From NCBI GenBank assembly GCA_017620205.1, contig JAFZQX010000037.1, positions 31,681 to 95,680 on the forward strand: 64,000 nt of DNA. Reading direction: 5' to 3'. This DNA is from Clostridia bacterium (GTDB taxonomy: Bacteria > Bacillota > Clostridia > UMGS1883 > UMGS1540). Below, one piece after another: positions 1,751 through 23,900 of the stretch; within the stretch, counting starts at the first letter, position 1, and every line of letters begins with the position of its first letter. The translations under genes and the position numbers were made by a program. A model generated the notes under the pieces. The model saw only the letters and a list, made by a program, of their open reading frames with translations. It had not been told where the DNA came from and searched no databases.

Positions 1751-2064
1751 AAACATCTAATTGGAACGAAGGTATTTCGGCTGAAATCAAAGAGATTCAA
1801 GAGGAAGATGAAAGCCTTATTGTAACGGCGGAAATTGAAAGCTTTTTAGAAAACGCGGAGAACGCGCTTTGCTTTTTTGCGGCGTATGACGAAAACGGAA
1901 AGCTTATCTGTGTTTACTGCAAAGATGTGCCTCTCAAAGTGTTTGGCAGGGCGGAAAGCTTAAAGCTTATCGCGCCTTTAAATACTGCTTCATATAAGCT
2001 TATGCTTTGGAACAATGACATGCAGACGTTATTACAAAAGCCGATCTCCGGCGAAATTAAATAA
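1..2064 (+). CDS. Secreted/surface repeat protein, 5'-truncated by the window edge. It has two tandem ~301-aa DUF6273-like modules plus a C-terminal tail domain.
   Basis: Frame 1 is open from base 1. TYYGEPILWRCVDIDKNGPL precedes the track ATG at 61 and recurs at nt 904. The stop is TAA at 2062-2064, followed by a hairpin terminator. Each unit ends in WLR[ST]...G[IV]RPAFYLN, which I associate from memory with DUF6273-type modules. Confidence 0.7.
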   Translation, partial: TYYGEPILWRCVDIDKNGPLMLSDKIICLKAFDASGDNTSGSHSRSYNEGFYRREYGSNYWADSNIRSWLNSTDSEGNVNWACGNPPDDDHVWKGYNDYASEAGFLTNFTRGELYAIKQVTQKSILDDYEYSETANPDHHIYNSDINDVLQNYDTAFSEKVTDMMFLPDVKQINAVYNNSEILGDGYYIGEPTAQCVANSEYTDSSLGNGNKWCSWLRTPGTEGAGTAGRYVDYNGTVISHGYYSTDWIGCNGIRPAFYLNIETASVISGSGTEDDPYVVNAVFANWKQSVINVGEYLQMGTYYGEPILWRCVDIDENGPLMLSDKIICLKVFDASGTNTSGSHGRGYYIYDVQGFFRQKHGSNYWADSNMRCWLNSLSSAGNVNWACGNPPDREHVSYKAYDNEAGFLTNFSKGELNSIKQVTQKSLVDGYEYSDSSNTINPDYYRLEHEIDNVVQNYDTAFSEQVTDIMFLPDVKQINAVYNNRSVLGDDYYLGEPTAQCVANSIYTNISFAAGGKWETWLRSADADYCFNVCFVDYFGWVYSTIADDGSRGVRPAFYLNPETAVFTNGGGTEENPYTVSAETSNWNEGISAEIKEIQEEDESLIVTAEIESFLENAENALCFFAAYDENGKLICVYCKDVPLKVFGRAESLKLIAPLNTASYKLMLWNNDMQTLLQKPISGEIK

Positions 2065-2065
2065 C

Positions 2066-2097
2066 AAAAAAATGCGGAGCTTTTGCTCCGCTTTTTC
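2066..2097. terminator. Bidirectional intrinsic terminator between convergent genes
   Basis: The hairpin gcggagc-tttt-gctccgc (2074-2091) is flanked by an A-run upstream and a T-run downstream. Confidence 0.7.
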
Positions 2098-2123
2098 ATT
2101 ATTTCTGCATTCTGCATTATAAT

Positions 2124-4724
2124 TTATCCATTAATCAAACCGTATTTAAGCTTAATTCTCTCAATCTTCTCTATCATCGGTTCCGCTATAAACCACAGGA
2201 AAAACGCAGTTGAGGCGGCGTGAATCATGTCAAACGGAAAGCCCGATATATAAGACGCCAAAATCATGTCCTTATTAGGGTTTGGCTGAAACATAATAAT
2301 TGCCGCGGGGTTCATTATGGCACCGTATATAATTGCCGCGAAAATCCCGAACAGGCAAAGCGAAAGCTTTGTTTTTTTTATTATACCCTTTTTGCAAAGC
2401 ACGCCTGAAAGAAAGCCTATAATGCCGAAAACAAACATCTGCCACGGCGTCCAGGGTCCCTGCCCGAAAACCATGTTTGAGGCAAACGCGGTTACAGCGC
2501 CTACCAAAAAACCGATTTCTGAGCCGAGGCACACGCCCGAAATTATAATAAGCGCCAAAACGGGTTTAAACTGCGGCAGCATGAAAAAAGCCGTTCTGCC
2601 CGTCGCGCCGAGGGCGCATAAAACGCTGATTAAAACTATTTCACGCGCGCCCGGATTTCTGTTTTCAAAAAACAGAGAAAATGGAATAAGTGTTTCAATT
2701 ATTATTAAAAAGCTTATAAAAAGATACTTTCTGTCGCCTAAATGATATACGCCTATATATATTGTAAAAGGCACGGCAAGCAAAAACAAAAGCGCGGCAA
2801 CTATTGTGCTTTTTTTAAGCTTCTGCGTTTTTTGAAACTGACTTTTAGAAACCTTAAATTCCTTTTTTGGAATAAAACAAATAAATGTTATGCTAAGCAG
2901 TATTGCCGCAAAAAGCTGAACTAAGTTTATGTCTATTGAAAGCATTTCTTTTGCCTGAAGTATCAGCAAAAAAACAAAAGAAAAAAAGCTTATAAGTCCA
3001 AGCGCGGTTTTTAAAGGCGCGCGTTTTTTGCGGCTTGTTATTTCCTCTTTTTCAAAAGTAATATTCTTTGAATAATCTTTTTTTTGTGTTTTATTTTCCT
3101 TTATTTCTCCGCCGAAAGCTTTTATAATATCGTCCGCCAAAAGGGCAGAGGGCAAAATGTCTCTTGCCATTCTGTTTGCCGCGGTTGTGTAAAAGCTTTT
3201 GCCCGCGAAAAACAGTTGCGGCGCGTCGGAAGACACTATCGCGCCGTCAAAAAACATGGCGCACCTGTCTGCGTATTCCGCGCAGAAATCAATATCGTGC
3301 GAAACTATAACAATTGTTTTTCCGTCACCTTTAAGCCTACAGAGAATCTCCGCGAATGTCTTTTTAAAGCTTGCGTCAAGCCCTTTTGTAGGCTCGTCTA
3401 AAAGTAATACGTCAGGCGACAATAAAAGCAGCTTCGCAAAAGCCGCCCTTTGCTGCTCGCCGCCCGACAAATCGTACGGGTGGAAGGCTAAAAGGTCTTC
3501 TATGCCGCAAAGAGCACAAACGCTTAAAACGCGCTCCTTTTTCTCTTCTTCCGTTATTTTTTCGTCGCGGAGCATATCCATAAGATCAAGATAAACAGAG
3601 GCTTTGGTAAAAAGCACCTGCGGGTCCTGCGGCAAAATATTAATCTTTAAATTGTTTTCGTTTATAACCTTTCCGCGGTACGGTTTTAAAACGCCGCCAA
3701 TCACCCCGAGCGCCGTCGTTTTACCTACGCCGTTGCCGCCGAGGAGAGCAAAAATTTCGCCTTTTTTAATTTTAGCGGAAAGACCTTTTATTATGTCTTT
3801 ACCGTTTTTTTCGTATCTGAAATGTATATCGCGAAGCTCTATCACCGTTTCGCCGGATTGTCCTTCTGTATGCACGATTTTACTTTCGTCTTTTTCATGC
3901 GTTTTTGCGTATTCGGAAAGCCATGCTTTACCGTCCCTGACAGTTATGGGGGATAATGTCTGCTTATCAAGTGATGCGTGTACTTTTATCGGCGCCGGCA
4001 GTGCCCAAAACATTTCGTGGTCAAAAAGCAGTTTGCCGATATTCTGCGGCGCAGTATCCGCCAAAACCTTACCATCATCCAAAACCCATACTCTGTCTGA
4101 AAGCGGCAGAGCTTCTTCAAGGCGGTGTTCGGATAATATAACTGTTGTGCCTATCTCTTCGTTAATTCTTTTAAGAGTTTTTAAAAACTCGGAAGCGGCT
4201 ATGGGGTCAAGCTGGGAAGTCGGCTCGTCGAGCAGTAAAACCTCAGGCTGCATAACCATAACGGACGCTAAATTAAGTATCTGTTTCTGACCGCCCGAAA
4301 GGTCTGCTGTTTTTTTGTGAAACCAATCCGATATGCCGAAAAATGAAGCCGTTTCGGAAACCCTCAGGCGTATTTCGCTTGTGGGAAAGCCGAGGCTTTC
4401 AAGACCGAAAGCCAGCTCATGCCAAACCTTGTCCGTAACTATTTGGTTTTCTGGGCTTTGCGATACAAAGCCTATTTTAGCAGCTTCATCGCGCGCTTCA
4501 AGTAAAGATATATCTTTATTTTGAAATAAAATACTGCCTTCTTTACTGCCGTGCGGAGAAATGCTCGGCTTTAATAGCCGCAAAAGCGTTGTCTTGCCGC
4601 AGCCCGATTTTCCGCACAACGCTATAAACTCACCTGCGTTTACATTTAGAGTCACAGATGAGAGCGCCGTATTGTCCCTTGCGGGGTATGTAAAGCTTAA
4701 ATCTTTTATGCTGTACGTTTCCAT
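2124..4724 (-). CDS. ECF-type ABC transporter: duplicated ATPase (EcfA-EcfA') fused to a C-terminal multi-TM, S-component-like domain
   Basis: There are two full ABC cassettes: Walker A GKSGCGKTT and GGNGVGKTT, signatures LSGGQKQ and LSGGEQQ, and Walker B LLLDEPT twice. About 300 aa of hydrophobic helices follow. The C-terminal ~170 aa resemble ECF substrate-capture proteins. The start overlaps the ecfT stop by 19 nt. Confidence 0.8.
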   Translation of the reverse strand: METYSIKDLSFTYPARDNTALSSVTLNVNAGEFIALCGKSGCGKTTLLRLLKPSISPHGSKEGSILFQNKDISLLEARDEAAKIGFVSQSPENQIVTDKVWHELAFGLESLGFPTSEIRLRVSETASFFGISDWFHKKTADLSGGQKQILNLASVMVMQPEVLLLDEPTSQLDPIAASEFLKTLKRINEEIGTTVILSEHRLEEALPLSDRVWVLDDGKVLADTAPQNIGKLLFDHEMFWALPAPIKVHASLDKQTLSPITVRDGKAWLSEYAKTHEKDESKIVHTEGQSGETVIELRDIHFRYEKNGKDIIKGLSAKIKKGEIFALLGGNGVGKTTALGVIGGVLKPYRGKVINENNLKINILPQDPQVLFTKASVYLDLMDMLRDEKITEEEKKERVLSVCALCGIEDLLAFHPYDLSGGEQQRAAFAKLLLLSPDVLLLDEPTKGLDASFKKTFAEILCRLKGDGKTIVIVSHDIDFCAEYADRCAMFFDGAIVSSDAPQLFFAGKSFYTTAANRMARDILPSALLADDIIKAFGGEIKENKTQKKDYSKNITFEKEEITSRKKRAPLKTALGLISFFSFVFLLILQAKEMLSIDINLVQLFAAILLSITFICFIPKKEFKVSKSQFQKTQKLKKSTIVAALLFLLAVPFTIYIGVYHLGDRKYLFISFLIIIETLIPFSLFFENRNPGAREIVLISVLCALGATGRTAFFMLPQFKPVLALIIISGVCLGSEIGFLVGAVTAFASNMVFGQGPWTPWQMFVFGIIGFLSGVLCKKGIIKKTKLSLCLFGIFAAIIYGAIMNPAAIIMFQPNPNKDMILASYISGFPFDMIHAASTAFFLWFIAEPMIEKIERIKLKYGLING

Positions 4725-5578
4725 CTTTGTGCCTCCAAAATCTCAACCCCGAGGGGGTATATGCAAAGCAGAAAATATGCTGCAAAAAAACTAAGATTCA
4801 AATACGAAAAGCCCGCGCCGTAAAGCGAGGGTATATATCTGAAAGACATAAAGCCCGCTATTCTGCCTGCCAGAACATACAGCCCCAAAAGCAAAATAAC
4901 AGCAAGAGCTTTTGTGTCTCTTTTGTCAAATTTATAAATGGAAAAAGCGGTTCTGCCGCGCAGTCCGTAGCCGCGGCCTTTCATGCTGTCCGCAGTTTCG
5001 ATAGAGTTTTCAAGTGCCCATGTTGTGGCGGCGGACAAAACGGAAAGACCGTTTTTGGCGCGTGCAAAAATACCGCCGTTTTTACTGCCGCGGCCTATGC
5101 CTTTTTGCGCCGCGGAAATCATGCGGATTTGAGATATAAACCTCGGCACAAATCTGAGCGTCATTGAAAGGAGGAGAGATAGGGAGGGCAGTATTCTCCC
5201 GAAAAGATAAATAAACTTATCGCTTGTCATAATCTCCGTATAGCACGAAAACCAAAGTATAACGGAAGCTATCATAATGCCCGTTGCGAGACCGTATATT
5301 ATTGATTCAAGCGTCAACGGGTTTCCACTCGGAAGATAGCCTAAAACAGTAATGCCCGCGTGGTTAAACGCGGGATTTATAAGCGCCGTTGCCAAAAAAA
5401 CGGGCAGCACAAACAAAAGCTTTTTACCGCTGCCGAGGAAGTAGGTGTAAAGCATACTTCCTATAAGCGAAAAGCCGAGGCACACGGGGTGCATAAACGT
5501 TACTGAAAAGCAAATTACAAATAAAAAATATATGAAATTAACTATAGGGTGAAATGTTTTAAACTCATTCTGTTTCAT
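4706..5578 (-). CDS. ecfT: ECF transporter transmembrane (T) component, EcfT/CbiQ family
   Basis: This polytopic membrane protein sits immediately upstream of the ECF ATPase. I chose the start MKQNEF (ATG at 5578) rather than the track ATG at 5617, and it overlaps the upstream stop by 14 nt. The family call rests on context and general similarity. Confidence 0.7.
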   Translation of the reverse strand: MKQNEFKTFHPIVNFIYFLFVICFSVTFMHPVCLGFSLIGSMLYTYFLGSGKKLLFVLPVFLATALINPAFNHAGITVLGYLPSGNPLTLESIIYGLATGIMIASVILWFSCYTEIMTSDKFIYLFGRILPSLSLLLSMTLRFVPRFISQIRMISAAQKGIGRGSKNGGIFARAKNGLSVLSAATTWALENSIETADSMKGRGYGLRGRTAFSIYKFDKRDTKALAVILLLGLYVLAGRIAGFMSFRYIPSLYGAGFSYLNLSFFAAYFLLCIYPLGVEILEAQRWKRTA

Positions 5579-6365
5579 TTTTTCTACCGTTTTTTGGCTG
5601 TTCTTCGCCGCCAACATCTTTACCTAAATCGCAGGTGTAAACCCATTCTATTTTGTCGCCGGACGATACTTTATACTGTGAGCAGCCGTAGTTTGGAAAC
5701 ACGCCGTTTACTTTATACATCCAGCCGGAAAGATCGCCGCAGTCAAATTCGTATAGGTTTCCTATACCTTCTATATATGCGCTTCCGTACATGGGAGCGT
5801 TTACAAATTCCATGTGTATTTTGTTAAGTTTCATTTCACGCTGTAAAACGTTAAAAACGCTTTCGCCCGGATTGAATTTCACACGTCGTTCCTCATAAAT
5901 TATGCCGTTTTGCGGAACTAAATCAGCTTTTCCGTCACGAAGTGAGGGCATATTGTTTAAAATAGTATCACAGCGCACCGAAAGCGTGCAGTAAGGCTCG
6001 GTTTGCGGTTCGGGCGCAGCTTCTTCGGGCGGGGCGGAAACTGCGGGCGTTTGCGGAACTTCTGCGCTTTGGAGTACGTCGGGCGCATTTTCTTCCGCTT
6101 CCGCAATTGGGTTATCTTCAGACGGAGGCTCTTGCGTTTCCTCCTGCGGTTCGGGCGAGGGGACTTCGGCGTCTTCCGCTGCCGAAGGATACTCTGCCGC
6201 AGGCTCTGAAACATCTGCTTCGCCGGTGTTTAATTCTGTTTTTGTTTCGCTGACGGTGAAATTTTCTTTATTTGCGGTCCGGGGGAGATTATACGCTGCC
6301 AAAAGCACTATAACCGCAAGTAAGGCAAAAACCGAATTGCGAATTAAAACTTTTCTGTTTTTCAT
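5565..6365 (-). CDS. Membrane-anchored DUF4430 (transcobalamin-like C-terminal domain) protein with a Pro/Glu-rich linker
   Basis: It has an N-terminal TM helix (VFALLAVIVLLAAY), a long PE-rich spacer, and a C-terminal module ...GWMYKVNGVFPNYGCSQYKVSSGDKIEWVYT typical of DUF4430. The ATGA start overlaps the upstream gene. Confidence 0.75.
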   Translation of the reverse strand: MKNRKVLIRNSVFALLAVIVLLAAYNLPRTANKENFTVSETKTELNTGEADVSEPAAEYPSAAEDAEVPSPEPQEETQEPPSEDNPIAEAEENAPDVLQSAEVPQTPAVSAPPEEAAPEPQTEPYCTLSVRCDTILNNMPSLRDGKADLVPQNGIIYEERRVKFNPGESVFNVLQREMKLNKIHMEFVNAPMYGSAYIEGIGNLYEFDCGDLSGWMYKVNGVFPNYGCSQYKVSSGDKIEWVYTCDLGKDVGGEEQPKNGRKNETE

Positions 6366-7933
6366 AAAAGATTTGCCTTTCCGAGCATTTTATAAACCAT
6401 TTCCGCGATTTCAGCCCTTGTTACGGCTTCGCGCGGGTTTATGTAAACTACGCTTGTATCAAGTATCTTTTCGCGGCAGCAAAACGCCATATCGTTTTGC
6501 GCCCAATCGGAAATATCGGTATAATCGGGAAACTCAGATAAATAATCCAAAGTGTTATACATAGACATATCGGTGTCCAGTCCGCAAAGCGCTGCGGCGC
6601 GGCAAAGCATAACCGCCGCTTCTTCGCGCGTTATGGTGCCTGAGGGGTTAAACTCCGTTTCCGACACGCCTTTTACTATTCCGTATGAATACGCCGTGCC
6701 GACATAAGGATAAAACCAGTCGGCTGTATTTACGTCCGCAAACGCGTTTGTCTGCTTTTGGGGAAGTGAAAGCGCCGAAACGGTAATTGTCGCAAACTGC
6801 GCGCGCGTCATGGTGCCGGAGGGCTCAAATGCCAAATCCGTCATGCCGTTTATTATGCCGCGCGATGCGAGCGTTTCAACTGCTGTTTGACAATCTAAGC
6901 CTTTAATATCTTCAAACGTCTTACCTTCATATTTTATCACGGAAATTGACACATCGTCAAGCTTTCCCGAAAGGCCTTCGCTTTTTTTAGGTTTGGGCGC
7001 GTCACTCATGTCGAATATCGACGGCTTGTTTTGAGAGAGCCTTTCAGCCGCCGCCAGAGAATAAAGGCACTGCTCTGTTGTCATAAGGCTTGGCGCGTCC
7101 TCGTCCGCCGTATGCGAAAAGCCGCCGTCTTTTTGGAATTTTGTGAGAAAATCGGGAATGGTGCTGCCGTTTTTTATAAAGCGGCTGTCGGTATACGGAA
7201 TGCCGAGTTGGGAGATGCATAAAAGCACCTGCGCCGCGCTCTCGGCATTTTCCGTGCCGAAGCTTTCGTATCCGCCGCTTGATGTTTGCACTGCGGAAAG
7301 GAAGGAGATGCCGCGCTGTATAGCGGAGCTTACATTTTCGTTGTTTTTATAGGGAGCAAAAGCGGTTAAAACCATGGCGGTTACATCAACATCTGGAGTA
7401 TCATTATCTTTTGTAAGCGCAAAACCGCCGTCTGGAAGTTCCAAAGAAAGAATGTAATCTACATAGGTGCTTTTTATTTGGTCGTCTCCGAAACCCGCAC
7501 ACTGCATTGCGATAAGCGCCCATACGGGGCCGTTTATGCCCTGCCATACGGTTTTGTCAAAATCGAGAAGCGGTGCGGTCAAATCGTAACCGCCTATGTT
7601 TTTGGGGTCTGCTCCGATAGATGAAAGCGCAATAACGGCGCGTGAATATTCCGTATATTTCTTGTCATGCAAAACGCCGTTTGCGTCTTTAACCGTGCCC
7701 GTCAGCCGATCTATATAGCCTTTAAAGTATTCTTCGGGCATTTCCCTTCCGCACCGTGCGAGAGAGAATATAGCCCATTCTCCGCCTACAGAGCCGAAAG
7801 AGGGAGCTTGAACATTTGACGATACATATGCTGCCGCACCGTCTGTTAAAGCGGAAATATCTGCGGCGGCTTCCGCAGAGAAGCCGCCGAGAATTATTAG
7901 TAATGAGAGAAAAAGTGATAACGCTTTTTTCAT
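6362..7933 (-). CDS. Secreted alpha/alpha-toroid (prenyltransferase/SQCY-like repeat) protein with C-terminal SLH domains
   Basis: The signal peptide is MKKALSLFLSLLIILGGFSAEAAA. Repeats LPDGGFAL, SSGGYESFG and KDGGFSH are typical of alpha6/alpha6 toroids. The C-terminal SLH repeats include ...ASRGIINGMTDLAFEPSGTMTRAQFA and ...GIVKGVSETEFNPSGTITREEAA. Confidence 0.75.
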   Translation of the reverse strand: MKKALSLFLSLLIILGGFSAEAAADISALTDGAAAYVSSNVQAPSFGSVGGEWAIFSLARCGREMPEEYFKGYIDRLTGTVKDANGVLHDKKYTEYSRAVIALSSIGADPKNIGGYDLTAPLLDFDKTVWQGINGPVWALIAMQCAGFGDDQIKSTYVDYILSLELPDGGFALTKDNDTPDVDVTAMVLTAFAPYKNNENVSSAIQRGISFLSAVQTSSGGYESFGTENAESAAQVLLCISQLGIPYTDSRFIKNGSTIPDFLTKFQKDGGFSHTADEDAPSLMTTEQCLYSLAAAERLSQNKPSIFDMSDAPKPKKSEGLSGKLDDVSISVIKYEGKTFEDIKGLDCQTAVETLASRGIINGMTDLAFEPSGTMTRAQFATITVSALSLPQKQTNAFADVNTADWFYPYVGTAYSYGIVKGVSETEFNPSGTITREEAAVMLCRAAALCGLDTDMSMYNTLDYLSEFPDYTDISDWAQNDMAFCCREKILDTSVVYINPREAVTRAEIAEMVYKMLGKANLL

Positions 7934-7942
7934 TATTTCACC

Positions 7943-10900
7943 TTATTTATTTAAAAGATTAAAGAAACGCATGAGTAGTGTTGCAGCCTGTGCGCGCGTA
8001 AGTGTTGTTTTGGGTGAGATGAGAGTATCGGTCATACCCGTAATAATGCCTTCGCCAACGGCCCATTTTATGCCGTCTTCCGCCCAGCTGCTTATGTCGT
8101 TTTTATCTTCAAAATCACTTAAATCAGCGTAGTTTTCCTCAAAGCAATCTTTGAATTTTGCATAGCGCGAAAGAATAAGTGCCGTCTGCTCGCGCGTTAC
8201 TTTTTCACCCGGTGCAAATTCCGTGTCGCTTATGCCGAGGATTATGCCGTTTGCTTCGCCCCATGCGACGGAGTCAAAATACCAATCGTCTGCGGAAACG
8301 TCGCTGAATTTGCAATCCGTTGCCTTTTCATATTTTCCGTCAAGACGGTATAAAACGGTAACGAGCATAGCGCGCGTCATTTCGGTATCGGGCTCAAAGT
8401 TGTCGCCCGTGCCTATCATAAGACCGTGCTCATAGCAGTATACTACAGCGTCATGGAACCAGTCGCCTTTTGATACGTCATCATAAATCTTATATACGGC
8501 AGCCGTAGCGTCGGGGCCTTTTTCCCACTTTGCATACAGAGTTATATTATTTACGATCGGCTCGTTTATGTCAAATTCTTTTGTAAACTCTTTGTCGGTA
8601 AACCAGCCTTCAAATGTATACCCCTTGCGTTCGGGGTCTGCAACGAAAGACATTTTGCCGCCTTTGTCAACCTCCAGAACGGGATATTTTTCGCCGCCGT
8701 TTGTTTCAAACGTTACTTTGCACGTGTTTGAAAGTGTTGTTCCGCCGGACGAAGATGACCTTTTCCAGGCTTCGGAGCCCGCCTCTTCGGAATAGTCGTC
8801 CGTATAGAACCATGTTACCGTGCAGTTTTTGGAAAGAGAAGTATCGCGGCAGCTCTTTGTACCGGCCTTGCCGTCAACCTGGAAGAGCCAGCCTGAATTC
8901 GGACCGTGATCAAATTCAGCGTCGTTGCCGATAGATGATATATATCCGTATGTTTTTTCTATATAGTCTATATTGTTTTCCGTTAAAATAAGATGAAGCG
9001 CGTCAAATACAGTCTGACCTTTGGAAAGAGTAACGGTTCCGCTTGCGAGAGAGGTATATTCGGAAGCGTTTTTCTTATATGTGTAAGCGCCTCCGCATTT
9101 GGATTTGTCATGAGTTAAAACTTTAATTTTAACGCTTATATCGCTGCTGGAATCTGATGAAGACTTGCTGCTCGGGAGCGATACGTTAACTGTTTTCGCT
9201 GTATGGTTTGTTTCTTCTTCATCTGTTACCGTAACAGTACCTTCTGCCGTTTTGTAGCCGCTTTTTTCTGCGGTGTAGTTATATGTGCCCGCGGGCAAAT
9301 CGTATTTGCCCTTTGAAACGGCTTCCTGTCCTTCAATAGTTAGTTTTGCGCTGTCAGGAATTAAATTAAATGTAACGGGACATCTCTCGGCCCATGAAGC
9401 CTGAGCCGTGTTTTTGGGGTTATCCGAAAAATCATAGATGTTTGAGCCTAAAAGCTCGTTTGCAACAAGACCGCGGAAGCCCTGCTCCGTGCCGAAGCTG
9501 TTATTAGTCGGCGTAAATCCGTCAAGCGTATCGGAAGCATAATTTACGAGACCGTCCAAAACGCTGTTGTTGTCTGTTTTAAGCTCCGCGCCGTCAATGC
9601 CGTAAGCTGCGAGAGCCGTAAGTGCAAGGCCTGTTGAGGAAGCGTTTCCGAAAGAGCCGTCCGCTGCCTGCGCGCCGCGAAGCTGTTCTATCGTTTCATC
9701 AACTGCTGCTTTTACGTCTTCGTTTTCGTTATAAAACGGTGACAGGGCGAGGAGCATAGCAGCCGCCGTATCAACGCCCCATGTGTTATCCTGCCAAGCT
9801 TTTTTTTGTTCTACGGCGGAGTTTATAAGGTAGTCCGTGCCGCTTTTATCTAAGTAATCCTCATCCTCGTTCATAGCCAAAATAACGTAGGGGAGAGTAT
9901 ATATATTTGTGACCGCGGCGTTTTCTTCGTCAATCAGAGCCTGAAGCTTTTTAACTAAGTTTACTGTGCGGAAATCAGATGTTTTTATGTTTTCGGGGTC
10001 AAAACCCAAGGCGCGGAGCGCGATTATATATTTTGCAATGTCGCCCGCTTTTGTTGCTTCGTCCGCCGCGGGTATCAGTTTATCGAGATATTCCTGTACC
10101 TGTTCATCGGACAAAACGTTTTCCGTGTCGGGGAAGGCTTTTTTGTATGCCGCCAAATCTGCCGCGAGCCAGGGCGCGTTCATATCGTCCGCTATACCGC
10201 TTTCGGCGTATTTTGCGGCAATGTTATGCATAATTTCAAGCGCTGACGGAGCTTCTGTTACGGTTACTTCACAGCTGTCCGAAAAACCGCCGTCGTTTGT
10301 TTTGGCAGTTATTGTAGCCGTGCCCGCTTTAACGCCCGTTACAACGCCGCCTGATGAAACGCTTGCCGTTTCATCGTCTGACGATTCCCATGTAACGCTC
10401 TTGTCGGCGGCGTCTGCAGGTGCTATTTCGTAGCCTATAGCTTTGCTTTCGTTTACATAAACGGATAATTCGCTGTCAAGAGTTATACCTGTAACCGCTA
10501 TGGGCGTGCCGACAGATACGGTGCACGAAGCGGGAACTATGGGAGCGTTTGCGTTTTTGGCAACAACCGTGTATGTGCCCTCTTCGGGGAAAGTAAGCGT
10601 AGCTTTGCCTTCTGCATCTGTTACGGCTTCAATACCGTCCAGTTCCAAAACACTGACTGCGGCGCCTTCGCATGGAACAAAAGCGACACCGTTATCTGAG
10701 GTCCAAATCGCTTTTGAAAGCGTAAATTCCGTCTCCGTGGCTGCAGGTGTTGAATATTCGTCATATTCAAATTTAGTATAAGTGTCAGCCCAGGAAGCGG
10801 TGTCTTTATATACAAAAGCATATATAAAGTCGCCGGCTGTCACTTTATCGGTAAGAGACCATGCTGAGGTGTGATTCTGATAATACCCGTAAGCGTAGCT

Positions 10901-11962
10901 TGTATCGCCCCAAAGCTTTGATAATGATAATCCGTAACCGTTGTCGGCCGTTTCATATCCGTGAGCGTCATCTGCGTAGGTGTCGTGCGCAGCGGAGAGC
11001 ACATCGTCTATTGTATATTCGCGCTTGCCCGATACAGTTACGGGCAGACGGTTAAAGCTTTTGCCGTCTTTTGCCGTAACAAAATCTGCGTTTTGGCTTA
11101 TTGTTACATACGCCGTCATAACGTTTCCGATATTAACCGGAGTGGGGTTCATTATGCAAACGGAAATGTAATCTTCCCCGTTTGCCATTACCGTAAGATA
11201 ATATATACCGGGCTCCATATCATCGGGTATCGGGATAGCAGCTTCTCCGTCCTCGTCCGTATAAACGTCCTCTATTTCGGTTAAACCGCCGTCCTCGCTT
11301 ACCCATGCAAATACTGCGTCTTCTATTTCTTCGCCGGATTCTTTAAATTCTTCCGGTGTTTTATACAAATAGCCGCCCATTACCATAGAGCCTGTAACGG
11401 TTACTTCCAAGTCCTCTCCGGGGAAAGCGGAAAGGTCTCCGTCTATCCATGTGTAAGTGTCGGCCCAGTATGAATCTTCATAAAAGAAGAAGTCAACCTT
11501 ATCGCCTGAAACGAGTTTATGCGTTGTATAAGTAGTGCCGTTGTAGCCGCTGCCGTAAGGGCTTGCGGTACCGTCATTGGGATAGCCTTCGTTTACAAGA
11601 AAACCGCCGTAGTAAGTGCTTGACGATATGCCGAATACTTTTGTTGCGCTGCCGTTTGAAACTTCAAGATAATCGCTTACTGTGTCTTTTGTAAAGTCAT
11701 TACCGTAAATAATCTCGTGCTCTTTTATAAGCGCGTCAAGAACGGAAACGCCGTTAACTTCGTCCGCAAAGCCGTATTTTTCGGATAAATCACTTGATAC
11801 CTCTAATGTCTGAGGAGGCGCCAGAAAGCCGCCACTGAGCTGTGCAACAGTATAAACATCTGCGGTAACGGCTTTAGCAGGTTCCGCAAAAACGTTTATA
11901 CTGCACATGCCTAACATCATAGTAAGTGCAAGTACCAGTGATAGTAGTTTCCTTGTTTTCAT
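7943..11962 (-). CDS. 1339-aa S-layer-anchored multidomain surface protein: DUF4430-like modules, Big_2, alpha/alpha toroid, PEGA-like domain, DUF4430, Flg_new repeat and SLH x3
   Basis: I set the start at MKTRKLLSLVLALTMMLGMCSINVFA (ATG 11962, RBS aaggaag). The track's 56-codon extension would overlap the riboswitch platform. Motifs: Big_2 (VTWESSDDETASVSSGGVVTGVKAGTATITA), toroid (ADGSFGNASSTGLALTALAAYG), DUF4430 (GPNSGWLFQVDGKAG...TVTWFYTDDY), Flg_new (YTFEGWFTDKEF...ITLYAKW), and three SLH repeats at the C-terminus. Confidence 0.8.
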   Translation of the reverse strand: MKTRKLLSLVLALTMMLGMCSINVFAEPAKAVTADVYTVAQLSGGFLAPPQTLEVSSDLSEKYGFADEVNGVSVLDALIKEHEIIYGNDFTKDTVSDYLEVSNGSATKVFGISSSTYYGGFLVNEGYPNDGTASPYGSGYNGTTYTTHKLVSGDKVDFFFYEDSYWADTYTWIDGDLSAFPGEDLEVTVTGSMVMGGYLYKTPEEFKESGEEIEDAVFAWVSEDGGLTEIEDVYTDEDGEAAIPIPDDMEPGIYYLTVMANGEDYISVCIMNPTPVNIGNVMTAYVTISQNADFVTAKDGKSFNRLPVTVSGKREYTIDDVLSAAHDTYADDAHGYETADNGYGLSLSKLWGDTSYAYGYYQNHTSAWSLTDKVTAGDFIYAFVYKDTASWADTYTKFEYDEYSTPAATETEFTLSKAIWTSDNGVAFVPCEGAAVSVLELDGIEAVTDAEGKATLTFPEEGTYTVVAKNANAPIVPASCTVSVGTPIAVTGITLDSELSVYVNESKAIGYEIAPADAADKSVTWESSDDETASVSSGGVVTGVKAGTATITAKTNDGGFSDSCEVTVTEAPSALEIMHNIAAKYAESGIADDMNAPWLAADLAAYKKAFPDTENVLSDEQVQEYLDKLIPAADEATKAGDIAKYIIALRALGFDPENIKTSDFRTVNLVKKLQALIDEENAAVTNIYTLPYVILAMNEDEDYLDKSGTDYLINSAVEQKKAWQDNTWGVDTAAAMLLALSPFYNENEDVKAAVDETIEQLRGAQAADGSFGNASSTGLALTALAAYGIDGAELKTDNNSVLDGLVNYASDTLDGFTPTNNSFGTEQGFRGLVANELLGSNIYDFSDNPKNTAQASWAERCPVTFNLIPDSAKLTIEGQEAVSKGKYDLPAGTYNYTAEKSGYKTAEGTVTVTDEEETNHTAKTVNVSLPSSKSSSDSSSDISVKIKVLTHDKSKCGGAYTYKKNASEYTSLASGTVTLSKGQTVFDALHLILTENNIDYIEKTYGYISSIGNDAEFDHGPNSGWLFQVDGKAGTKSCRDTSLSKNCTVTWFYTDDYSEEAGSEAWKRSSSSGGTTLSNTCKVTFETNGGEKYPVLEVDKGGKMSFVADPERKGYTFEGWFTDKEFTKEFDINEPIVNNITLYAKWEKGPDATAAVYKIYDDVSKGDWFHDAVVYCYEHGLMIGTGDNFEPDTEMTRAMLVTVLYRLDGKYEKATDCKFSDVSADDWYFDSVAWGEANGIILGISDTEFAPGEKVTREQTALILSRYAKFKDCFEENYADLSDFEDKNDISSWAEDGIKWAVGEGIITGMTDTLISPKTTLTRAQAATLLMRFFNLLNK

Positions 11963-11987
11963 TTGTATTACTTCCTTTCTTTGCGCA

Positions 11988-12018
11988 TAAAAAAATGCAC
12001 TGATTAAAATCAATGCAG
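11988..12018 (-). terminator. Intrinsic terminator in the riboswitch expression platform
   Basis: The minus strand reads ctgcattgatt-tta-atcagtgca followed by T7. It lies between the riboswitch aptamer and the RBS/ATG at 11962. Confidence 0.65.
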
Positions 12019-12127
12019 CGGAGTTTTCCTGCAAAATACGCAATTTAAATGCAACACAAATAAGCATACCCAAAAGATATACTTCCTTTAAATCTGCTAT
12101 TCCTGTGTAAAAACACGTACGGAATAA

Positions 12128-12318
12128 CATCAGAGCAGGTCTTTTGGCTCGTGCCTTTAACCGTTTTACACCATGCCTTCTCAGTTTCCCAATGACCGGC
12201 TTTCACCGACGGCGTAAAACACAGAAACACATACAGCGACCGTTATCGCAGAGGATTCGCACCTCTTTCCCTTTTCACCCCATGCGCCTGAGCCGTGCTC
12301 TTTACGGCGCATAAGACA
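12128..12318 (-). promoter_or_regulatory. Cobalamin (B12) riboswitch
   Basis: The minus strand contains GGTGAAAAGGGAAAGAGGTGCGAATCCTCTGCGATAACGG ... GTCATTGGGAA ... GAGCCAAAAGACCTGCTC. These match the conserved GGGAA / GGTGCGAATCC core and a B12-box-like element (consensus AGCCAGGAGACCTGCC). Boundaries are approximate. Confidence 0.8.
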
Positions 12319-12348
12319 CTCTGTGCGTATATTTTTATATTTAATTTA

Positions 12349-12377
12349 ATTATAACAATATTTGCTTTTTCAGTCAA
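12349..12377 (-). promoter_or_regulatory. Sigma-A-type promoter for the riboswitch operon
   Basis: The minus strand reads TTGACT, a 17-nt spacer, then TATAAT, just upstream of the riboswitch. Confidence 0.6.
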
Positions 12378-12460
12378 TAGCAAAAAGCAAACTATTGTAA
12401 AAGCTTGACAATTTAATAAAATATGATAAAATTATAAGAAAAAACTTATGGTAAGAATTT

Positions 12461-13120
12461 ATGTTTAAAGACAGTTTTTTAAATAAAACGGGGAATCATC
12501 CCGCAACGCAAAGGTTTATTACGGATATTAATTTCAGGGCGATCCTGTCTGCAATCTGGTCAACCGCCATAAATTTAGGCTTTACTGTTTATAACGGATA
12601 TCTCGGCTTTAAAAACGGTTCGGTATGGTTTATAACAATGTGTGTTTACTATGCCGCGCTGTTTATCATGCGCTGTTTTGTTGTTGTGCAAAGCAGAAGC
12701 CGCAACAGAAAAAACGATGCGGTAATAATGCGTGTTGACGGGATTTTGCTCGTCGTTTTGATGATAGCGCTGACGGGTATTATTTCGCTTTCTATAAATT
12801 TCAATATCGTAAGAACGCACGGAAAAGTCGCTATGATTGTCCTTATGATTTATACGGTTTTCAAAATAACCATAGCGCTTACAAACTTTGTAAGGATAAA
12901 ACACTTGTCATCGCCTATTATAAGAACGGTTTACAGCATCTGTTTTGCGGACGCGCTCGTGGCTCTTATATCCATGATGCTCAGTATTTTTGCGGTTTTG
13001 GGAATTCTGGAAAAGGGCCGTGCGTTTGTTGTTTTCGCGGGAGCGATTGTGTGTATGATTATAGCAATGCTCGCGGCAACTATGGTATTTCATTCAAATA
13101 AGCGCGGCGATTTGCAGTAA
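12461..13120 (+). CDS. Polytopic membrane protein, function unknown
   Basis: This 219-aa ORF has about 6 hydrophobic helices. A possible TTGACA promoter with an extended -10 lies at 12405-12432. I recognised no family. Confidence 0.6.
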   Translation: MFKDSFLNKTGNHPATQRFITDINFRAILSAIWSTAINLGFTVYNGYLGFKNGSVWFITMCVYYAALFIMRCFVVVQSRSRNRKNDAVIMRVDGILLVVLMIALTGIISLSINFNIVRTHGKVAMIVLMIYTVFKITIALTNFVRIKHLSSPIIRTVYSICFADALVALISMMLSIFAVLGILEKGRAFVVFAGAIVCMIIAMLAATMVFHSNKRGDLQ

Positions 13121-13140
13121 CATACGAAAGGAATAATAAA

Positions 13141-13869
13141 ATGAAACTGATATTTATACGTCACGGAGATCCCGATTACGTAAACGATACGATAACCGAG
13201 AGAGGAAAAATTGAGGTTGAGGCTTTGACAGAGAGGGTTTTAAAATGGGATGTAGACGAAATATTCCTGTCACCGCTGGGCCGTGCGCAGGACACCGCAA
13301 AGCCATATCTCGAAAAAAGCGGCAGACATGCCGAGACGCTTCCGTGGCTGCGTGAATTTAACGGTCACGCGATAAGACCTCATACCGGCAAACAGGCGCT
13401 CCCCTGGGACTTTATGCCGGACTTCTGGACAAACGTCCCTGAGCTGTACGATAAAGATTTTTGGTACAAAGCGCCCGTTATGCAAACGGGAGATGTTGAG
13501 GAGCAGGCTGAATGGGTTTACGAAGAGTTTGATAAGCTTTTGGCGCAGCGCGGGTATATAAGAGACGGAAGAGTATATAAAACGGAAAAGGGGAATAATA
13601 AAACCCTGGTTTTCTTCTGCCATCTCGGCGTTCAGCTTTTAATACTTTCACATCTGTTCGGAATATCGGCACCGTGCCTTTGGCAAAACTTTTTTGTAGC
13701 GCCTACGTCCGTAACAGTAGTTGAAACGCAGGAGAGGGAAGAAGGCAGAGCGTGTTTCAGATGCCAGAAGCTCGGCGATACCGCACACCTTGAAGCCGCC
13801 GGAATAAAGCCTTCAAGATCGGGCTTTTTTGAAGAGGTATACGGAGAAGAAAAATTTGATATATTTTAA
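13141..13869 (+). CDS. Histidine phosphatase family protein (phosphoglycerate-mutase-like)
   Basis: The N-terminal MKLIFIRHGD matches the RHG catalytic motif, and the ~240-aa size is typical. Confidence 0.75.
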   Translation: MKLIFIRHGDPDYVNDTITERGKIEVEALTERVLKWDVDEIFLSPLGRAQDTAKPYLEKSGRHAETLPWLREFNGHAIRPHTGKQALPWDFMPDFWTNVPELYDKDFWYKAPVMQTGDVEEQAEWVYEEFDKLLAQRGYIRDGRVYKTEKGNNKTLVFFCHLGVQLLILSHLFGISAPCLWQNFFVAPTSVTVVETQEREEGRACFRCQKLGDTAHLEAAGIKPSRSGFFEEVYGEEKFDIF

Positions 13870-16400: not shown

Positions 16401-19400
16401 CTAATTATATACTATTATATCACCAATGTCAAATAAGTAAATGAATTTTTCGGAAATTTTTGAAAAATACTTCTTGTGAAGAACGTCTGCATATGCGTCA
16501 ATCTGCGTTTTGTAGCGGTTTTTAATTTCTTCTTTGTCGCGCACTTTATCCGTTTTAAAATCGATAAGAACAATGTTGTCTCCTTCGAAGAAGTAGCAGT
16601 CAATAATGCCTTGAAGCAATATGCTCTCGCCGGCGTCATCGGGATTTTTAGTGAGAACAGACGCGCTGCAAAGTGATGTGAAAGCTTCTTCTCTGTAAAC
16701 TTTATCGGCGTTTTTAAGCCTTTGTCCCAAAGGGGACTCAAAAAACGCAAGTATTTTTTGGGCGGGTATATATTTTGCGGCTTCCTCCGTTATTATACCG
16801 TCCGCTTTAAGGCCTTCAATATGGTTTTTTACATCGTCTTCGGAATTTACGTTTAAAGGTATGGTCTGCATAACAAAGTGAATAAGCGTTCCGATTTCCG
16901 CCGCCGACATTTTGCCTTCTTTTTGCAGAAATACGGGCGTTTTAGGCTCGGGTGAACGGAACAGTTCAAGCGAGTCATCCTCTGCGATATTTGAAATGCG
17001 CTTAAGCTCTGTAACCGTAACTTTTGAAGGCAGGGTAAGGAGCCTTTCATATCCGTACTTGAATTCTGCGGGTTCAACTGTCAGGCCTTTGTTTCCCGGC
17101 CCATCTTCCGCTTTGCAAAGCTCGGGAAGAGTTGAAATATTATATGTTTTTATTACTGCCTTTGAAGAGAGTCCGCTTTCGTCGAGAGGATTAAGGCAGG
17201 AGAGTATGCACTGCAAATATGTTACCGGCTCAAACTCGTTTATTGAGATAAGCGCCGCGCCTTCTTTTGCGGCGTTGAGCGTCGCTCCCAGACTTGAGAC
17301 CGCGCCTGTTATGATAAGCCGTTCTTTTGCGCGCGTTAATGCAACATATAAAACTCGTATCTCTTCCGACGCCTCGTCTTCTCTGCACATGATTTTAACG
17401 GCGCGCCGTATGGGTGTTTCGTATTTTGTTCTAAACTTTAAATCGGTTGCATAAAGCCCCAAACCGAGTTTTTTATGAAGCGGCAGGCCTTTGGAATTAA
17501 CAGAAAGCCTATGTCCCGCGCCCGCCAGAAATACAATGGGAAACTCAAGACCTTTGCTTTTGTGTATCGTCATAATGCGGACAATACTGTTTGAAGATGT
17601 TATCGCGTGAGCTTCACCGCTGTCACTGCCGCGGCTTTTGAGGTTGCGCATATAGTTTAAAAAGCTGTACAAACCCTTAAACGACGACTTTTCATACATT
17701 CTCGCCTTTTCTACCATAAGGCGCAGGTTGGCCGTCTTTTCGTCGGCGTTTATGCCGCCTGATACAATATCAATATAACCGCTGTCGGTTAAGAGAAAAT
17801 CTATAAGTTCGCTGCACGCGAAACGTGAAACGGCTTCGCGCCATGTCTGAAGCTTTTTCAAAAAGCTTTTGCATTTAAGGCTTAAATCGCCTTCGCCTTC
17901 CGCGCACTTGCATACGGCAAAAAAGTATTCGCTGTATCTGTCATACGTACGTATTTCGGCGAGTTCGTTTTCAAAAAAAGAGAACATGGGCGAGCGCATA
18001 ACTGCAATAAGCGGAATGTCATTTATTGGGTTATCAACTATTTCCAAAAGCGACATTAAAAGCTTTATCTCAACCGTTTCAAAATAGCTTTCCCCGGCTT
18101 CGCTGTAAGCCGGAATACCTGCGTCAAGCAGAGCACGCAGCATGGTCGGCTGACCGTTATTACTGCGCAGGAGAATAGCAATATCGGAATAGTTTATTTT
18201 TCTGAATTCTCCTATGGAATTATCGAAAATCTGCTCGTTTTCTATAAGCTCTTTTATTCTTGACGCGATAACACGCGCTTCGGCTTCGATATCCGAGGGA
18301 TCTTCCTCGCCGGTGTCCTGATTTTCCTCGGTTTTTGTTGTTTCAATTATGTGTAATTCCGCTTCGGGCGTGAGATCTTTGGGGTATGAGGCCGCAAAAC
18401 ACAGCGCTTCACTTTCGTCATATTCCGTGCCGCCCGTTTTCTTGGTCATTATATTCTCAAAAATAAAGTTTACAAAATCTATAACGCCTTTGCAGCTTCT
18501 GAAATTTTTGGAAAGAATTATTTTTCTTTGCTTTTCCGATTCTCCCTCACGGAAAAGCTCTTTTTTTGAGGCAATCAAAGCGGGATTTGCCTGACGGAAC
18601 CCGTAAATACCCTGTTTCATGTCGCCTACCGTAAAAGTATTCGGCCTTCCGCTTCTGGCTCCGCCTATAAGACTGAAAATATACTCCTGGGTTTCATTGC
18701 TGTCCTGGTATTCGTCAACATAAATCTCGTCAAACATACCTTGCTGAATATCCGCAATCTCGGAAGGGTTTCCGTTTTCGTCTTCGAGGAGCGAAATGCA
18801 GATATGCTCCATATCTCCGAAATCTATAACGCCGCGTTCACGCTTTAAAGCTGTGTATTCTTCGGTAAAGCACCGTACTGCATACGCAAGACCTTTTGCC
18901 GTTTTATATGCGGTTTTAATATCCTCCGTGCATTCTTCACTTGCTTTTTCAAACGCTGAGAGAACGGCGTTGACCGAATCTTTCACGGATTTTCTAACTT
19001 TGCTTATATAGTCTTTTGCACTTCCGGAGTATTCGGAAAAAGAGAACCTGCTTACAAATATCTGTTCCGAAAGGGCGGCGCGGAGAGTATCCCTGCCTGC
19101 GTTATCGGCCGTTAAAGCGAGAATATTATTTATTTCGGTTCTTAGATTTTGCGCTTCAGCGTCGGTTTCGTTCATGTTGAAAATGGAGATAACCGAGGCA
19201 AGTTTTTGGGCGTCGCGCTTTAAGCGGCGGTGCGCATTCTCAAGAAGAATTCTTTCGCATTCGGAATTATCATATTCCTCCGCAGTATTTATATCGTATT
19301 TCAAAACGGATTCGTCAAGCCATTTTTCGGGGTGCGGCATACTTTGCGCATATTTATATACCTGCAGCATCGCGTCAAGCGCAGCCTTGTCGCTTCGCGG

Positions 19401-19898
19401 AGTTGACAGGCTGTCCGCAAAATAAAGAAAATCTTCATTACCTTCGTCATAAAGCTTTTCAAATACGGAGTCTGCCGCTTCAAGCTGCATAAGCTCCGCT
19501 TCGCTTTTGTCCGCAACGCGGAAAGAGGGCGGAAGCTCCGCTTCAAAAAAGTTTTCGCGGATAACGCCCATACAGTAAGAATGTATGGTAGATATTTTCG
19601 CGCAGGGCAAAAGGGCGAGCTGGCGGCGCAGATGCGCGCTGTTTGTTCCTTTCGGGTTTTTCTGAAGCTCGTCAGTTATAACTTTTGCTATTCTGCCTCG
19701 TATCTCTGCTGCCGCGGCTTCGGTAAAAGTTACTATAAGAAGGCGTGTTATATCCTGCCTGTCAAGTATGCGCCGGAGGATTCTTCCCGTTAAAACCTGC
19801 GTTTTGCCTGAGCCTGCGGCGGCTGTTATCAAAATATCGGCAACGGGCGCTTCAACTGCAGCTTTTTGCTGCTCGGTCCATTTAATTGCCATTTTCAC
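16401..19898 (-). CDS. addA: ATP-dependent helicase/nuclease AddA
   Basis: It has the UvrD-like Walker A AAAGSGKTQVL, helicase motifs, and the C-terminal RecB-type nuclease motif GIIDCYF...LIDFKTD. It lies immediately downstream of addB with overlap. Confidence 0.9.
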   Translation of the reverse strand: MKMAIKWTEQQKAAVEAPVADILITAAAGSGKTQVLTGRILRRILDRQDITRLLIVTFTEAAAAEIRGRIAKVITDELQKNPKGTNSAHLRRQLALLPCAKISTIHSYCMGVIRENFFEAELPPSFRVADKSEAELMQLEAADSVFEKLYDEGNEDFLYFADSLSTPRSDKAALDAMLQVYKYAQSMPHPEKWLDESVLKYDINTAEEYDNSECERILLENAHRRLKRDAQKLASVISIFNMNETDAEAQNLRTEINNILALTADNAGRDTLRAALSEQIFVSRFSFSEYSGSAKDYISKVRKSVKDSVNAVLSAFEKASEECTEDIKTAYKTAKGLAYAVRCFTEEYTALKRERGVIDFGDMEHICISLLEDENGNPSEIADIQQGMFDEIYVDEYQDSNETQEYIFSLIGGARSGRPNTFTVGDMKQGIYGFRQANPALIASKKELFREGESEKQRKIILSKNFRSCKGVIDFVNFIFENIMTKKTGGTEYDESEALCFAASYPKDLTPEAELHIIETTKTEENQDTGEEDPSDIEAEARVIASRIKELIENEQIFDNSIGEFRKINYSDIAILLRSNNGQPTMLRALLDAGIPAYSEAGESYFETVEIKLLMSLLEIVDNPINDIPLIAVMRSPMFSFFENELAEIRTYDRYSEYFFAVCKCAEGEGDLSLKCKSFLKKLQTWREAVSRFACSELIDFLLTDSGYIDIVSGGINADEKTANLRLMVEKARMYEKSSFKGLYSFLNYMRNLKSRGSDSGEAHAITSSNSIVRIMTIHKSKGLEFPIVFLAGAGHRLSVNSKGLPLHKKLGLGLYATDLKFRTKYETPIRRAVKIMCREDEASEEIRVLYVALTRAKERLIITGAVSSLGATLNAAKEGAALISINEFEPVTYLQCILSCLNPLDESGLSSKAVIKTYNISTLPELCKAEDGPGNKGLTVEPAEFKYGYERLLTLPSKVTVTELKRISNIAEDDSLELFRSPEPKTPVFLQKEGKMSAAEIGTLIHFVMQTIPLNVNSEDDVKNHIEGLKADGIITEEAAKYIPAQKILAFFESPLGQRLKNADKVYREEAFTSLCSASVLTKNPDDAGESILLQGIIDCYFFEGDNIVLIDFKTDKVRDKEEIKNRYKTQIDAYADVLHKKYFSKISEKFIYLFDIGDIIVYN

Positions 19899-23789: not shown

Positions 23790-23900
23790 TTATCTAAAAG
23801 AAGACATAGACTGTGGCGGAGCTGTCACGGTCTTTTTTCTTTTCTGTATATATTTTATCACAACAGGTGTACAGAAAAACGGACACCTTAACAAAACAGA

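Follow-up and report, generated by a model that had tools for sequence, protein, structure and literature searches.

A probable corrinoid-acquisition operon in a Clostridia bacterium: wall-anchored transcobalamin-like proteins and a CbrT-related ECF transporter behind a cobalamin riboswitch

Competition for corrinoids shapes gut communities. To our knowledge, surface capture of corrinoids has been characterised only in Bacteroidetes (BtuG, BtuH), and we know of a single Gram-positive corrinoid route of ECF (energy-coupling factor) type characterised so far, ECF-CbrT, which has been studied without a surface binder. BtuG is reportedly a cell-surface, high-affinity corrinoid binder of Bacteroides, encoded in vitamin B12 uptake loci. 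BtuH is a surface B12-binding lipoprotein of the same group (PMC8941943). In Lactobacillus delbrueckii, cbrT sits in an nrdJ-cbrS-cbrT-pduO cluster (Santos et al. 2018, PMC5997447), and that paper cites Rodionov et al. 2009 for the original prediction of CbrT. Burroughs, Balaji, Iyer and Aravind (2007, PMC1796856) described SLBB domains of bacteria that resemble transcobalamin and are fused to alpha/alpha toroids and to Ig-like domains. Surface proteins of this kind, together with CbiO/CbiQ transporters, were predicted there, without experiments, to scavenge B12 in Gram-positives, and a bacterial origin was proposed for animal transcobalamin-type proteins. In L. sakei, lsa1836-1840 encodes an S component, a fused EcfAA', EcfT, and separate secreted beta-domain and alpha-domain proteins, for which the authors model an alpha/beta heterodimer feeding the ECF transporter (bioRxiv 10.1101/864751). 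Here, an operon of five genes, g1 to g5, was analysed in a 64,000-nucleotide stretch of a Clostridia bacterium (GenBank GCA_017620205.1, contig JAFZQX010000037.1, positions 31,681 to 95,680), referred to below as the window.

The operon is likely to serve B12-repressed corrinoid acquisition, as an expanded, wall-anchored form of the Firmicutes CbrS/CbrT (ECF-CbrT) uptake system. Corrinoid capture and import under B12 control had been put forward in a preliminary description of the window, and that proposal is strengthened by a covariance-model match to the riboswitch, a transcobalamin fold in the surface protein, an S component of the CbrT family, and recurrence of the riboswitch at 65 of 71 related loci. 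On sequence, fold and comparative grounds, co-regulation and co-inheritance of the riboswitch, the binders and the ECF module are demonstrated. The elements concerned are as follows.

12349..12377, minus strand: sigma-70-type promoter (TTGACT at 12377-12372, a 17-nt spacer, TATAAT at 12354-12349, TG before the -10 hexamer)
12117..12338, minus strand: cobalamin riboswitch aptamer, RF00174 (Rfam covariance model)
11989..12017, minus strand: expression platform, an intrinsic terminator (9-bp hairpin at 12017-11996 followed by T7)
7943..11962, minus strand: g1, multidomain protein anchored by S-layer homology (SLH) repeats, 1339 aa (open reading frame (ORF) and Pfam)
8768..10240, minus strand: transcobalamin-like module of g1, residues 575-1065, with alpha domain, Ig-like insert and beta domain (Pfam, AlphaFold2)
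6362..7933, minus strand: g2, SLH-anchored alpha-only protein, 523 aa (ORF and Pfam)
5565..6365, minus strand: g3, membrane-anchored DUF4430 protein, 266 aa (ORF and Pfam)
4706..5578, minus strand: g4, EcfT, 290 aa, or 303 aa if the start is at 5617 (ORF and Pfam CbiQ)
2124..4724, minus strand: g5, EcfA-EcfA'-S fusion, 866 aa (ORF and Pfam/NCBIfam)
2074..2091, minus strand: operon-end terminator, a 7-bp GC-rich hairpin with a T-run, bidirectional and shared with a convergent DUF6273 gene

The promoter matches 11 of 12 consensus positions in addition to the TG extension and is the top-scoring site within 1900-12600. The aptamer aligns with the full model (positions 1-189) at 59.5 bits, against a gathering score of 31.5 (E = 3.2e-12), and RF00174 is the sole Rfam family detected across the 64-kb window. 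The terminator follows approximately 100 nt past the aptamer and 27 nt ahead of the g1 start codon at 11962, which is preceded by AAAGGAAG. Consecutive genes are separated, in order, by a 9-nt gap and then by overlaps of 4, 14 and 19 nt, where the 14-nt overlap of g3 and g4 presumes the second ATG of g4 as its start. The promoter, the cobalamin riboswitch, the hairpin with T7 and the five minus-strand genes with these gap and overlap values had all been claimed beforehand, and each was borne out at its position. A longer g1 ORF from 12130 was rejected. It would traverse the end of the aptamer and the terminator, whereas the 1339-aa form opens with a typical signal peptide, so that the shorter reading is taken as right. 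The riboswitch and terminator are evident in the leader itself, while a response to adenosylcobalamin would be expected from the established behaviour of such riboswitches. At high cellular adenosylcobalamin, the aptamer would bind its ligand and the hairpin-T7 terminator would halt transcription; when B12 is scarce, all five genes would be transcribed as one unit.

The surface protein g1 begins with a signal peptide (hydrophobic N-terminus), followed by repeats N1 (residues 25-290) and N2 (291-480) and a Big_2 domain (489-566). An alpha6/alpha6 toroid (~575-860), a PEGA/CarboxypepD_reg Ig-like insert (~860-960) and a DUF4430 domain (982-1054) come next, and the protein ends with Flg_new (1082-1145) and three SLH repeats (~1150-1339). 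SLH domains tether proteins to the wall polymer; those of g1 are found as three Pfam stretches (103 bits) in a region that matches Sap. Within the toroid, residues 625-807 match PF01122 (Cobalamin_bind, eukaryotic cobalamin-binding protein) with 51.5 bits against a cut-off of 25, and DUF4430 (PF14478) scores 50 bits. An AlphaFold2 model of residues 575-1065, built from an alignment of 60 homologues, has a mean predicted local distance difference test score (pLDDT) of 92.9. When this model was compared with the Protein Data Bank (PDB) by Foldseek, the 15 best matches were rat, human and bovine transcobalamin, haptocorrin and intrinsic factor, with E values from 3e-12 to 1.5e-8 and both domains aligned, which confirms the anticipated resemblance of the toroid plus DUF4430 module to transcobalamin. 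Owing to these fold matches over both domains, g1 is regarded as containing a complete alpha6/alpha6-barrel and beta-grasp module in the animal domain order. Furthermore, the beta domain by itself matches 5NP4, an isolated transcobalamin beta domain, as well as 3U7Z, a DUF4430 structure, and target-normalised TM-scores of the model beta domain against 5NP4 and 5NO0 are 0.72-0.73.

The second wall protein, g2, consists of a toroid (residues ~25-330) and an SLH region (~335-523). The latter is detected as two Pfam stretches (95 bits), and its 180 residues align with the Sap SLH trimer in a PDB sequence search. It should be noted that Pfam places the g2 toroid in SQHop_cyclase_C/Prenyltrans, not in PF01122, and that Foldseek also returns complement TED domains and terpene cyclases (drimenyl diphosphate synthases) for the g1 model, at E values of ~1e-3 only. 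Both observations would suit toroids that act as wall enzymes or glycan binders, of terpenoid-cyclase/prenyltransferase or complement-TED type, with no B12 role, in which case the riboswitch would mainly serve the transporter and the upstream genes would be passengers. Such a role is scarcely credible, since the g2 toroid, although below the PF01122 threshold when taken alone, is homologous to the g1 toroid (hhalign 100%, E = 1.6e-64), and g1 passes that threshold. Moreover, the transcobalamin-family matches are better by 8-9 orders of magnitude than those to cyclases or TED domains, and in many genomes the riboswitch stands over toroid-SLH and transmembrane (TM)-beta genes only, with no transporter attached.

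The beta domain recurs in g3, where a hydrophobic anchor (residues 6-24) and a Glu/Pro/Ala-rich linker of ~95 residues precede DUF4430 at residues 167-244 (Pfam, E = 5e-20). This domain and the g1 beta domain are clear homologues (hhalign E = 3e-57); a PDB sequence search with g3 gave zero matches. Apart from one detail, the domain content attributed to the five proteins in the preliminary description was found by profile search. The exception is the plural DUF4430 modules of g1: one is significant (982-1054), and N1 and N2 are only weakly DUF4430-like. These two repeats are paralogues of each other (hhalign 99%), each made of a beta-grasp-like unit and an Ig-like unit. DUF4430 was not detected in them by Pfam even at E = 10, and hhalign against DUF4430 gave a weak match of 53-55% probability. 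The strand-helix order of N2 equals that of the beta domain, and Foldseek gives Ig-like multidomain matches only.

The remaining two genes encode the transporter. The CbiQ match of g4 is borderline (25.6 bits, cut-off 25), and its matches to solved EcfT chains range from E = 1.1e-9 to 2.6e-6, the EcfT of 6FNP being found at 1.1e-9. In g5, EcfA (~1-260) and EcfA' (~290-545) are followed by four extra TM helices (571-686) and an S component (~694-866). The protein has two ABC_tran domains and a TIGR01166 cbiO match above its cut-off; ECF_ATPase_1 (313 bits, cut-off 315) and ECF_ATPase_2 (302 bits, cut-off 330) fall just under their equivalog cut-offs because the protein is a fusion. PF12822 (ECF_trnsprt) matches residues 694-840 with 34.7-37.5 bits against a cut-off of 30.7. 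When the S domain was searched as a single sequence, its sole significant solved relative in the PDB was 6FNP_A (CbrT), at E = 8.4e-6. A profile built from 26 S domains took the match to 6FNP_A up to E = 1.5e-14 and 57 bits, covering residues 6-178 of 182, and the next-best S component, 4HZU_S, was found at 0.0064. A check of 6FNP identified it as the vitamin B12 transporter ECF-CbrT from Lactobacillus delbrueckii. NCBIfam holds no specific model for the g5 S domain, g3 or g4. The family of the transporter is established by these matches, while its substrate and the delivery of ligand to it are predicted. As regards the four extra hydrophobic helices, they map to 2985-3332, between the ATPase pair and the S domain, and their even number is compatible with cytoplasmic ATPases and the usual S-component topology. 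The A-A'-S fusion is not universal, AA' and S being separate genes in two related loci (L009 and L113).

Relatives were collected in two surveys of a one-genome-per-species collection. The first, seeded with an alignment of the g1 alpha domain, gave 294 confirmed matches, and 80 loci were fetched. Nearly all fetched loci belong to uncultured gut, rumen or faecal Clostridia (Oscillospiraceae, Ructibacterium, Aphodoplasma, Congzhengia), with one Lawsonibacter isolate in addition. The conserved order is a large toroid-SLH gene, an optional g2-like toroid-SLH gene, a g3-like anchored DUF4430 gene, EcfT and EcfAA'-S. Riboswitches were searched with an nhmmer profile from 11 Rfam-verified aptamers and with direct Rfam scans; the profile missed divergent aptamers found by Rfam (L027, L038, L040, L137), so that the counts are lower bounds. 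Of the 71 loci whose upstream sequence is 350 nt or longer, 65 carry a same-strand upstream cobalamin riboswitch, at a median of 108 nt before the first ORF, and in 64 of these 65 a hairpin with a T-run lies within ~260 nt downstream of the aptamer. Among the example loci displayed, CAGGAAAACTCnGCTGTGG is a shared leader motif. The gene order behind B12 riboswitches thus recurs in other Clostridia, which is the question that the proposed survey was to answer, and this association ties the homologous operons to B12, not to another regulon. Some observations were made beside this. The Lawsonibacter sp. isolate, the only isolate of the set, is among the loci in which no riboswitch was found, and a tRNA gene lies just upstream. 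A ZMP/ZTP riboswitch directly follows the ECF operon in one locus (L028, 10061-10143), and a molybdenum-cofactor riboswitch lies near the cassette in another (L151, 14971-15121); both are probably unrelated neighbours.

The second survey, seeded with the S domain, gave at least 575 matches. The core cassette of toroid-SLH, TM-DUF4430, EcfT and EcfAA'-S was also found in Peptococcaceae, Pelotomaculum, Filifactoraceae, Peptostreptococcaceae, Anaerovoracaceae and Defluviitaleaceae. The cultured strains found with it are Paenibacillus silvestris 5J-6, Fusibacter paucivorans DSM 12116 and Oscillospiraceae LBM23126, and in P. silvestris (L137) a cobalamin riboswitch of 113.9 bits stands immediately upstream. 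In some metagenome-assembled genomes (MAGs), the site holds only riboswitch-EcfT-EcfAA'S. The MAG JAZQAN01 has this arrangement (L148), with riboswitch-alpha-SLH-TM-beta on another contig (L075); each has its own riboswitch, making two operons in one regulon. Variants of the cassette were also seen. An extra secreted protein of 356 aa is encoded between the riboswitch and the toroid-SLH gene at 2755-3825 of L139, and L120 and L090 show the same spacing; the protein has the DUF4430-like motif GW.Y..N...GD.I.W and is possibly a further binder of the beta type. Downstream of the ECF cassette, L123 (10431-18917) and L153 (10424-18916) encode giant SLH proteins (>2800 aa, two toroids and two beta domains); the giant SLH proteins, including that of L117, belong to Filifactoraceae and Peptostreptococcaceae MAGs, and L117 has two tandem cassettes, each with its own riboswitch. 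Three contig labels stand out, namely a Nitrososphaerota archaeon (L124), Paludibacteraceae (L162) and 'Faecalicatena absiana' (L169), the last with 98% identity to L. delbrueckii CbrT. All three most likely reflect binning or contamination errors in public records.

Several points weigh against reading the operon as a corrinoid system. In the g1 model, the predicted TM-score (pTM) is 0.69, which makes the inter-domain geometry uncertain; the module is no more than 13-16% identical to animal B12 binders; and to the N-terminal repeats of g1 no function is assigned. A riboswitch was undetected in 6 of the 71 alpha-domain loci (L017, L018, L019, L029, L030, L065), of which five were scanned with Rfam at the gathering score and L030 with the nhmmer profile only. 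Several S-seeded loci likewise showed no riboswitch in the fetched region, and many of the S-seeded loci end short upstream. ECF-CbrT moves B12 and cobinamide in E. coli without CbrS or a toroid protein (PMC5997447), and the L. sakei operon, which was deleted and complemented, was linked to haem and not to B12 (bioRxiv 10.1101/864751). For SLH-anchored members of the family, no binding, transport or expression data were found.

The L. sakei results are the basis for a different cargo, haem or another non-corrinoid tetrapyrrole, as proposed for lsa1836-1840. The intracellular content of haem and of 57Fe-haemin fell when these genes were deleted and rose when they were over-expressed (bioRxiv 10.1101/864751), and the pocket between alpha/alpha-toroid and beta-grasp domain is large and could hold other macrocycles. 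For the operon studied here such a cargo is nevertheless very improbable. A cobalamin riboswitch stands over it and over most of its relatives, the S domain is closest to a CbrT that transports B12, and the DUF4430-CbrT pair of L. delbrueckii lies between nrdJ and pduO. Among the neighbours of the operon, neither a haem-responsive element nor a haem-utilisation gene was found, and the L. sakei authors themselves leave the choice between haem and cobalamin open.

With a corrinoid as the probable cargo, a mechanism can be proposed. Both g1 and g2 are exported proteins and would be held on the cell wall by their SLH repeats. In this scheme g1 would be a complete clamp of toroid and DUF4430, g2 would supply the alpha part only, and g3 the beta part only, on a flexible Glu/Pro-rich membrane tether. 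Toroid and beta domains are predicted to clamp corrinoids as in transcobalamin and intrinsic factor, and g2 and g3 may act as a split pair, alpha and beta, coming together on the ligand close to the membrane; for fragments of intrinsic factor, a heterodimer that depends on the ligand is known. The ligand would then be handed to the S domain and imported by an ECF transporter of group I, with a module of its own, which consists of EcfT (g4) plus the fused EcfA-EcfA'-CbrT-like S protein (g5). The pairing of the surface genes bears on this scheme. A TM-beta gene follows the alpha-only SLH gene in 43 of 43 loci, as compared with 15 of 26 for alpha+beta fusions (Fisher p = 4e-6), which is as expected if alpha and beta must act together, and which marks g2 and g3 as a split pair beside the complete binder g1.

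It is a separate question whether the surface proteins pass their ligand on. The directional relay from wall to membrane contained in the preliminary description was conjecture and is unsupported as written. ECF-CbrT imports B12 in E. coli with neither a DUF4430 nor a toroid partner, so that the surface proteins may be accessory. The importer could be a B12 transporter whose uptake is independent of them, while they hoard or sequester corrinoids at the wall, as a store or against competitors, select among corrinoid variants or protect the ligand. Moreover, among the 51 loci whose downstream sequence spans 5 kb or more, 29 have riboswitch-led binder genes with no ECF genes within ~9 kb; in L055, for instance, the riboswitch governs two binder genes only and an aconitase gene is next. 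The transporter of JAZQAN01, as described above, has a riboswitch operon of its own, and the complete alpha+beta binder g1 sits far from the membrane, behind three SLH repeats. Even so, an arrangement in which the binders take no part in delivery appears unlikely. The invariable co-encoding of an alpha-only wall protein with a tethered beta protein argues for physical cooperation next to the transporter, as does the fixed order of overlapping alpha-SLH, TM-beta, EcfT and EcfAA'-S genes in many families, and a tether as long and flexible as that of g3 fits movement back and forth between wall and membrane. In the corrinoid-acquisition scheme favoured here, the surface proteins most likely raise the efficiency of capture at low external corrinoid and are probably not essential for transport. 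A bolder version can be entertained tentatively, although the odds are against it: an ECF transporter, of a class defined by lacking an extracytoplasmic binding protein, would here use two tiers of high-affinity binders, the g1 clamp on the outer wall and then the split g2/g3 clamp delivering to the S domain. If this were true, the operon would be a Gram-positive counterpart of the Bacteroides BtuG/BtuB capture system and a living model for the bacterial forerunners of transcobalamin and intrinsic factor in animals.

The surroundings of the operon were also inspected. On the divergent side of the riboswitch promoter region lies a pair of plus-strand genes (12405-13869), encoding a 219-aa protein without a family and a His_Phos_1 phosphatase (13141-13869), with a strong promoter-like site at 12405-12432 on the plus strand. 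Identification of the phosphatase as CobC (alpha-ribazole phosphatase) was rejected, its score being 30 bits against a cut-off of 163, and there is no evidence that either gene belongs to the B12 system. AddA/AddB-type helicase-nuclease genes and SpoIVA at 16401-25488 (minus strand) place the organism among endospore-forming Firmicutes, in agreement with the Clostridia MAG relatives. Further away, an ORF of 1350 aa at 29878-33930 (plus strand) has zero Pfam or NCBIfam matches, and after it, at 33942-35405 (plus strand), comes a 487-aa protein bearing a copper amine oxidase N-terminal-like domain.

As regards novelty, the preliminary description had claimed too much, since the same prediction was made independently by Burroughs et al. 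in 2007 (PMC1796856) and the L. sakei operon has been studied genetically (bioRxiv 10.1101/864751). The operon is a well-supported, testable system rather than a surprise. Five features are new here: the binders are anchored by SLH repeats; alpha-only and beta-only proteins are strictly paired; EcfA, A' and S are fused; a B12 riboswitch with a conserved attenuator is nearly universal; and the family extends broadly through uncultured gut Clostridia. A C. difficile riboswitch review does not list a comparable operon, and no biochemical study of any bacterial transcobalamin-like binder was found in the searchable literature. Most surveyed carriers are uncultured gut and rumen Clostridia, and a B12 riboswitch very often controls the genes. 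Should the proteins bind corrinoids, this would explain how B12 is scavenged through a thick wall, it would mean that ECF transporters can use external binding proteins, and it would provide bacterial, possibly separable alpha and beta versions of transcobalamin for structural and evolutionary study. Cultured carriers make the question testable: P. silvestris 5J-6, F. paucivorans DSM 12116, Oscillospiraceae LBM23126 and the Lawsonibacter isolate.

In comparison with the described systems, the likeness to BtuG and BtuH is a functional analogy, namely surface capture of corrinoids in gut bacteria. Those proteins are outer-membrane lipoproteins feeding the TonB-dependent BtuB, with unrelated folds and a different envelope and without homology; a BtuG entry was absent from the Pfam matches and from those listed by Foldseek for the parts of g1 that were modelled. 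With lsa1836-1840 of L. sakei the operon shares the same five kinds of part, a likeness by kind of component. In that operon no B12 riboswitch is reported, the binders are reported with export signals and no wall-anchoring domain, and the S component is not fused to the ATPases. The proteins of Burroughs et al. agree in concept, being secreted or surface SLBB (DUF4430) proteins, often fused to toroid and Ig-like domains and often accompanied by a second SLBB paralogue, beside CbiO/CbiQ-like genes. The text of that paper contains no match to the terms for riboswitch or S-layer/SLH anchoring, and the obligate pairing of alpha-only and tethered-beta proteins, the CbrT-family S component and the A-A'-S fusion are likewise absent from it. 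As in animal transcobalamin, intrinsic factor and haptocorrin, an alpha6/alpha6 barrel is followed by a beta-grasp domain in the same order. Unlike in the animal binders, an Ig-like PEGA domain is inserted in the linker and the module is embedded in the 1339-aa, wall-anchored g1, while in g2 and g3 alpha and beta are on separate polypeptides.

There remains the comparison with ECF-CbrT. The S domain of g5 aligns with full-length CbrT, and g4 matches the EcfT of the same complex. In the L. delbrueckii locus (L164), the 159-aa gene directly upstream of cbrT encodes a DUF4430 protein (E = 7.5e-20). This cbrS product opens with a hydrophobic segment and continues with a low-complexity linker, an anchor-linker-domain layout that it shares with g3; in both systems such a protein is encoded beside the S component. 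The cbrS-cbrT pair is flanked by the B12-dependent ribonucleotide reductase nrdJ and the cobalamin adenosyltransferase pduO, and no riboswitch was found within the fetched 10.5 kb of this cluster. L. delbrueckii relies on a group II ECF module, which is shared, and on a free-standing CbrT of 186 aa, with no toroid or SLH proteins in the cluster, whereas the Clostridia operon has a dedicated module, with A, A' and S fused through four extra TM helices, two wall-anchored alpha proteins and riboswitch control. The cbrS-cbrT pair is a minimal form of the same system, and in view of this likeness the operon of the window is best described as an enlarged CbrS/CbrT system.

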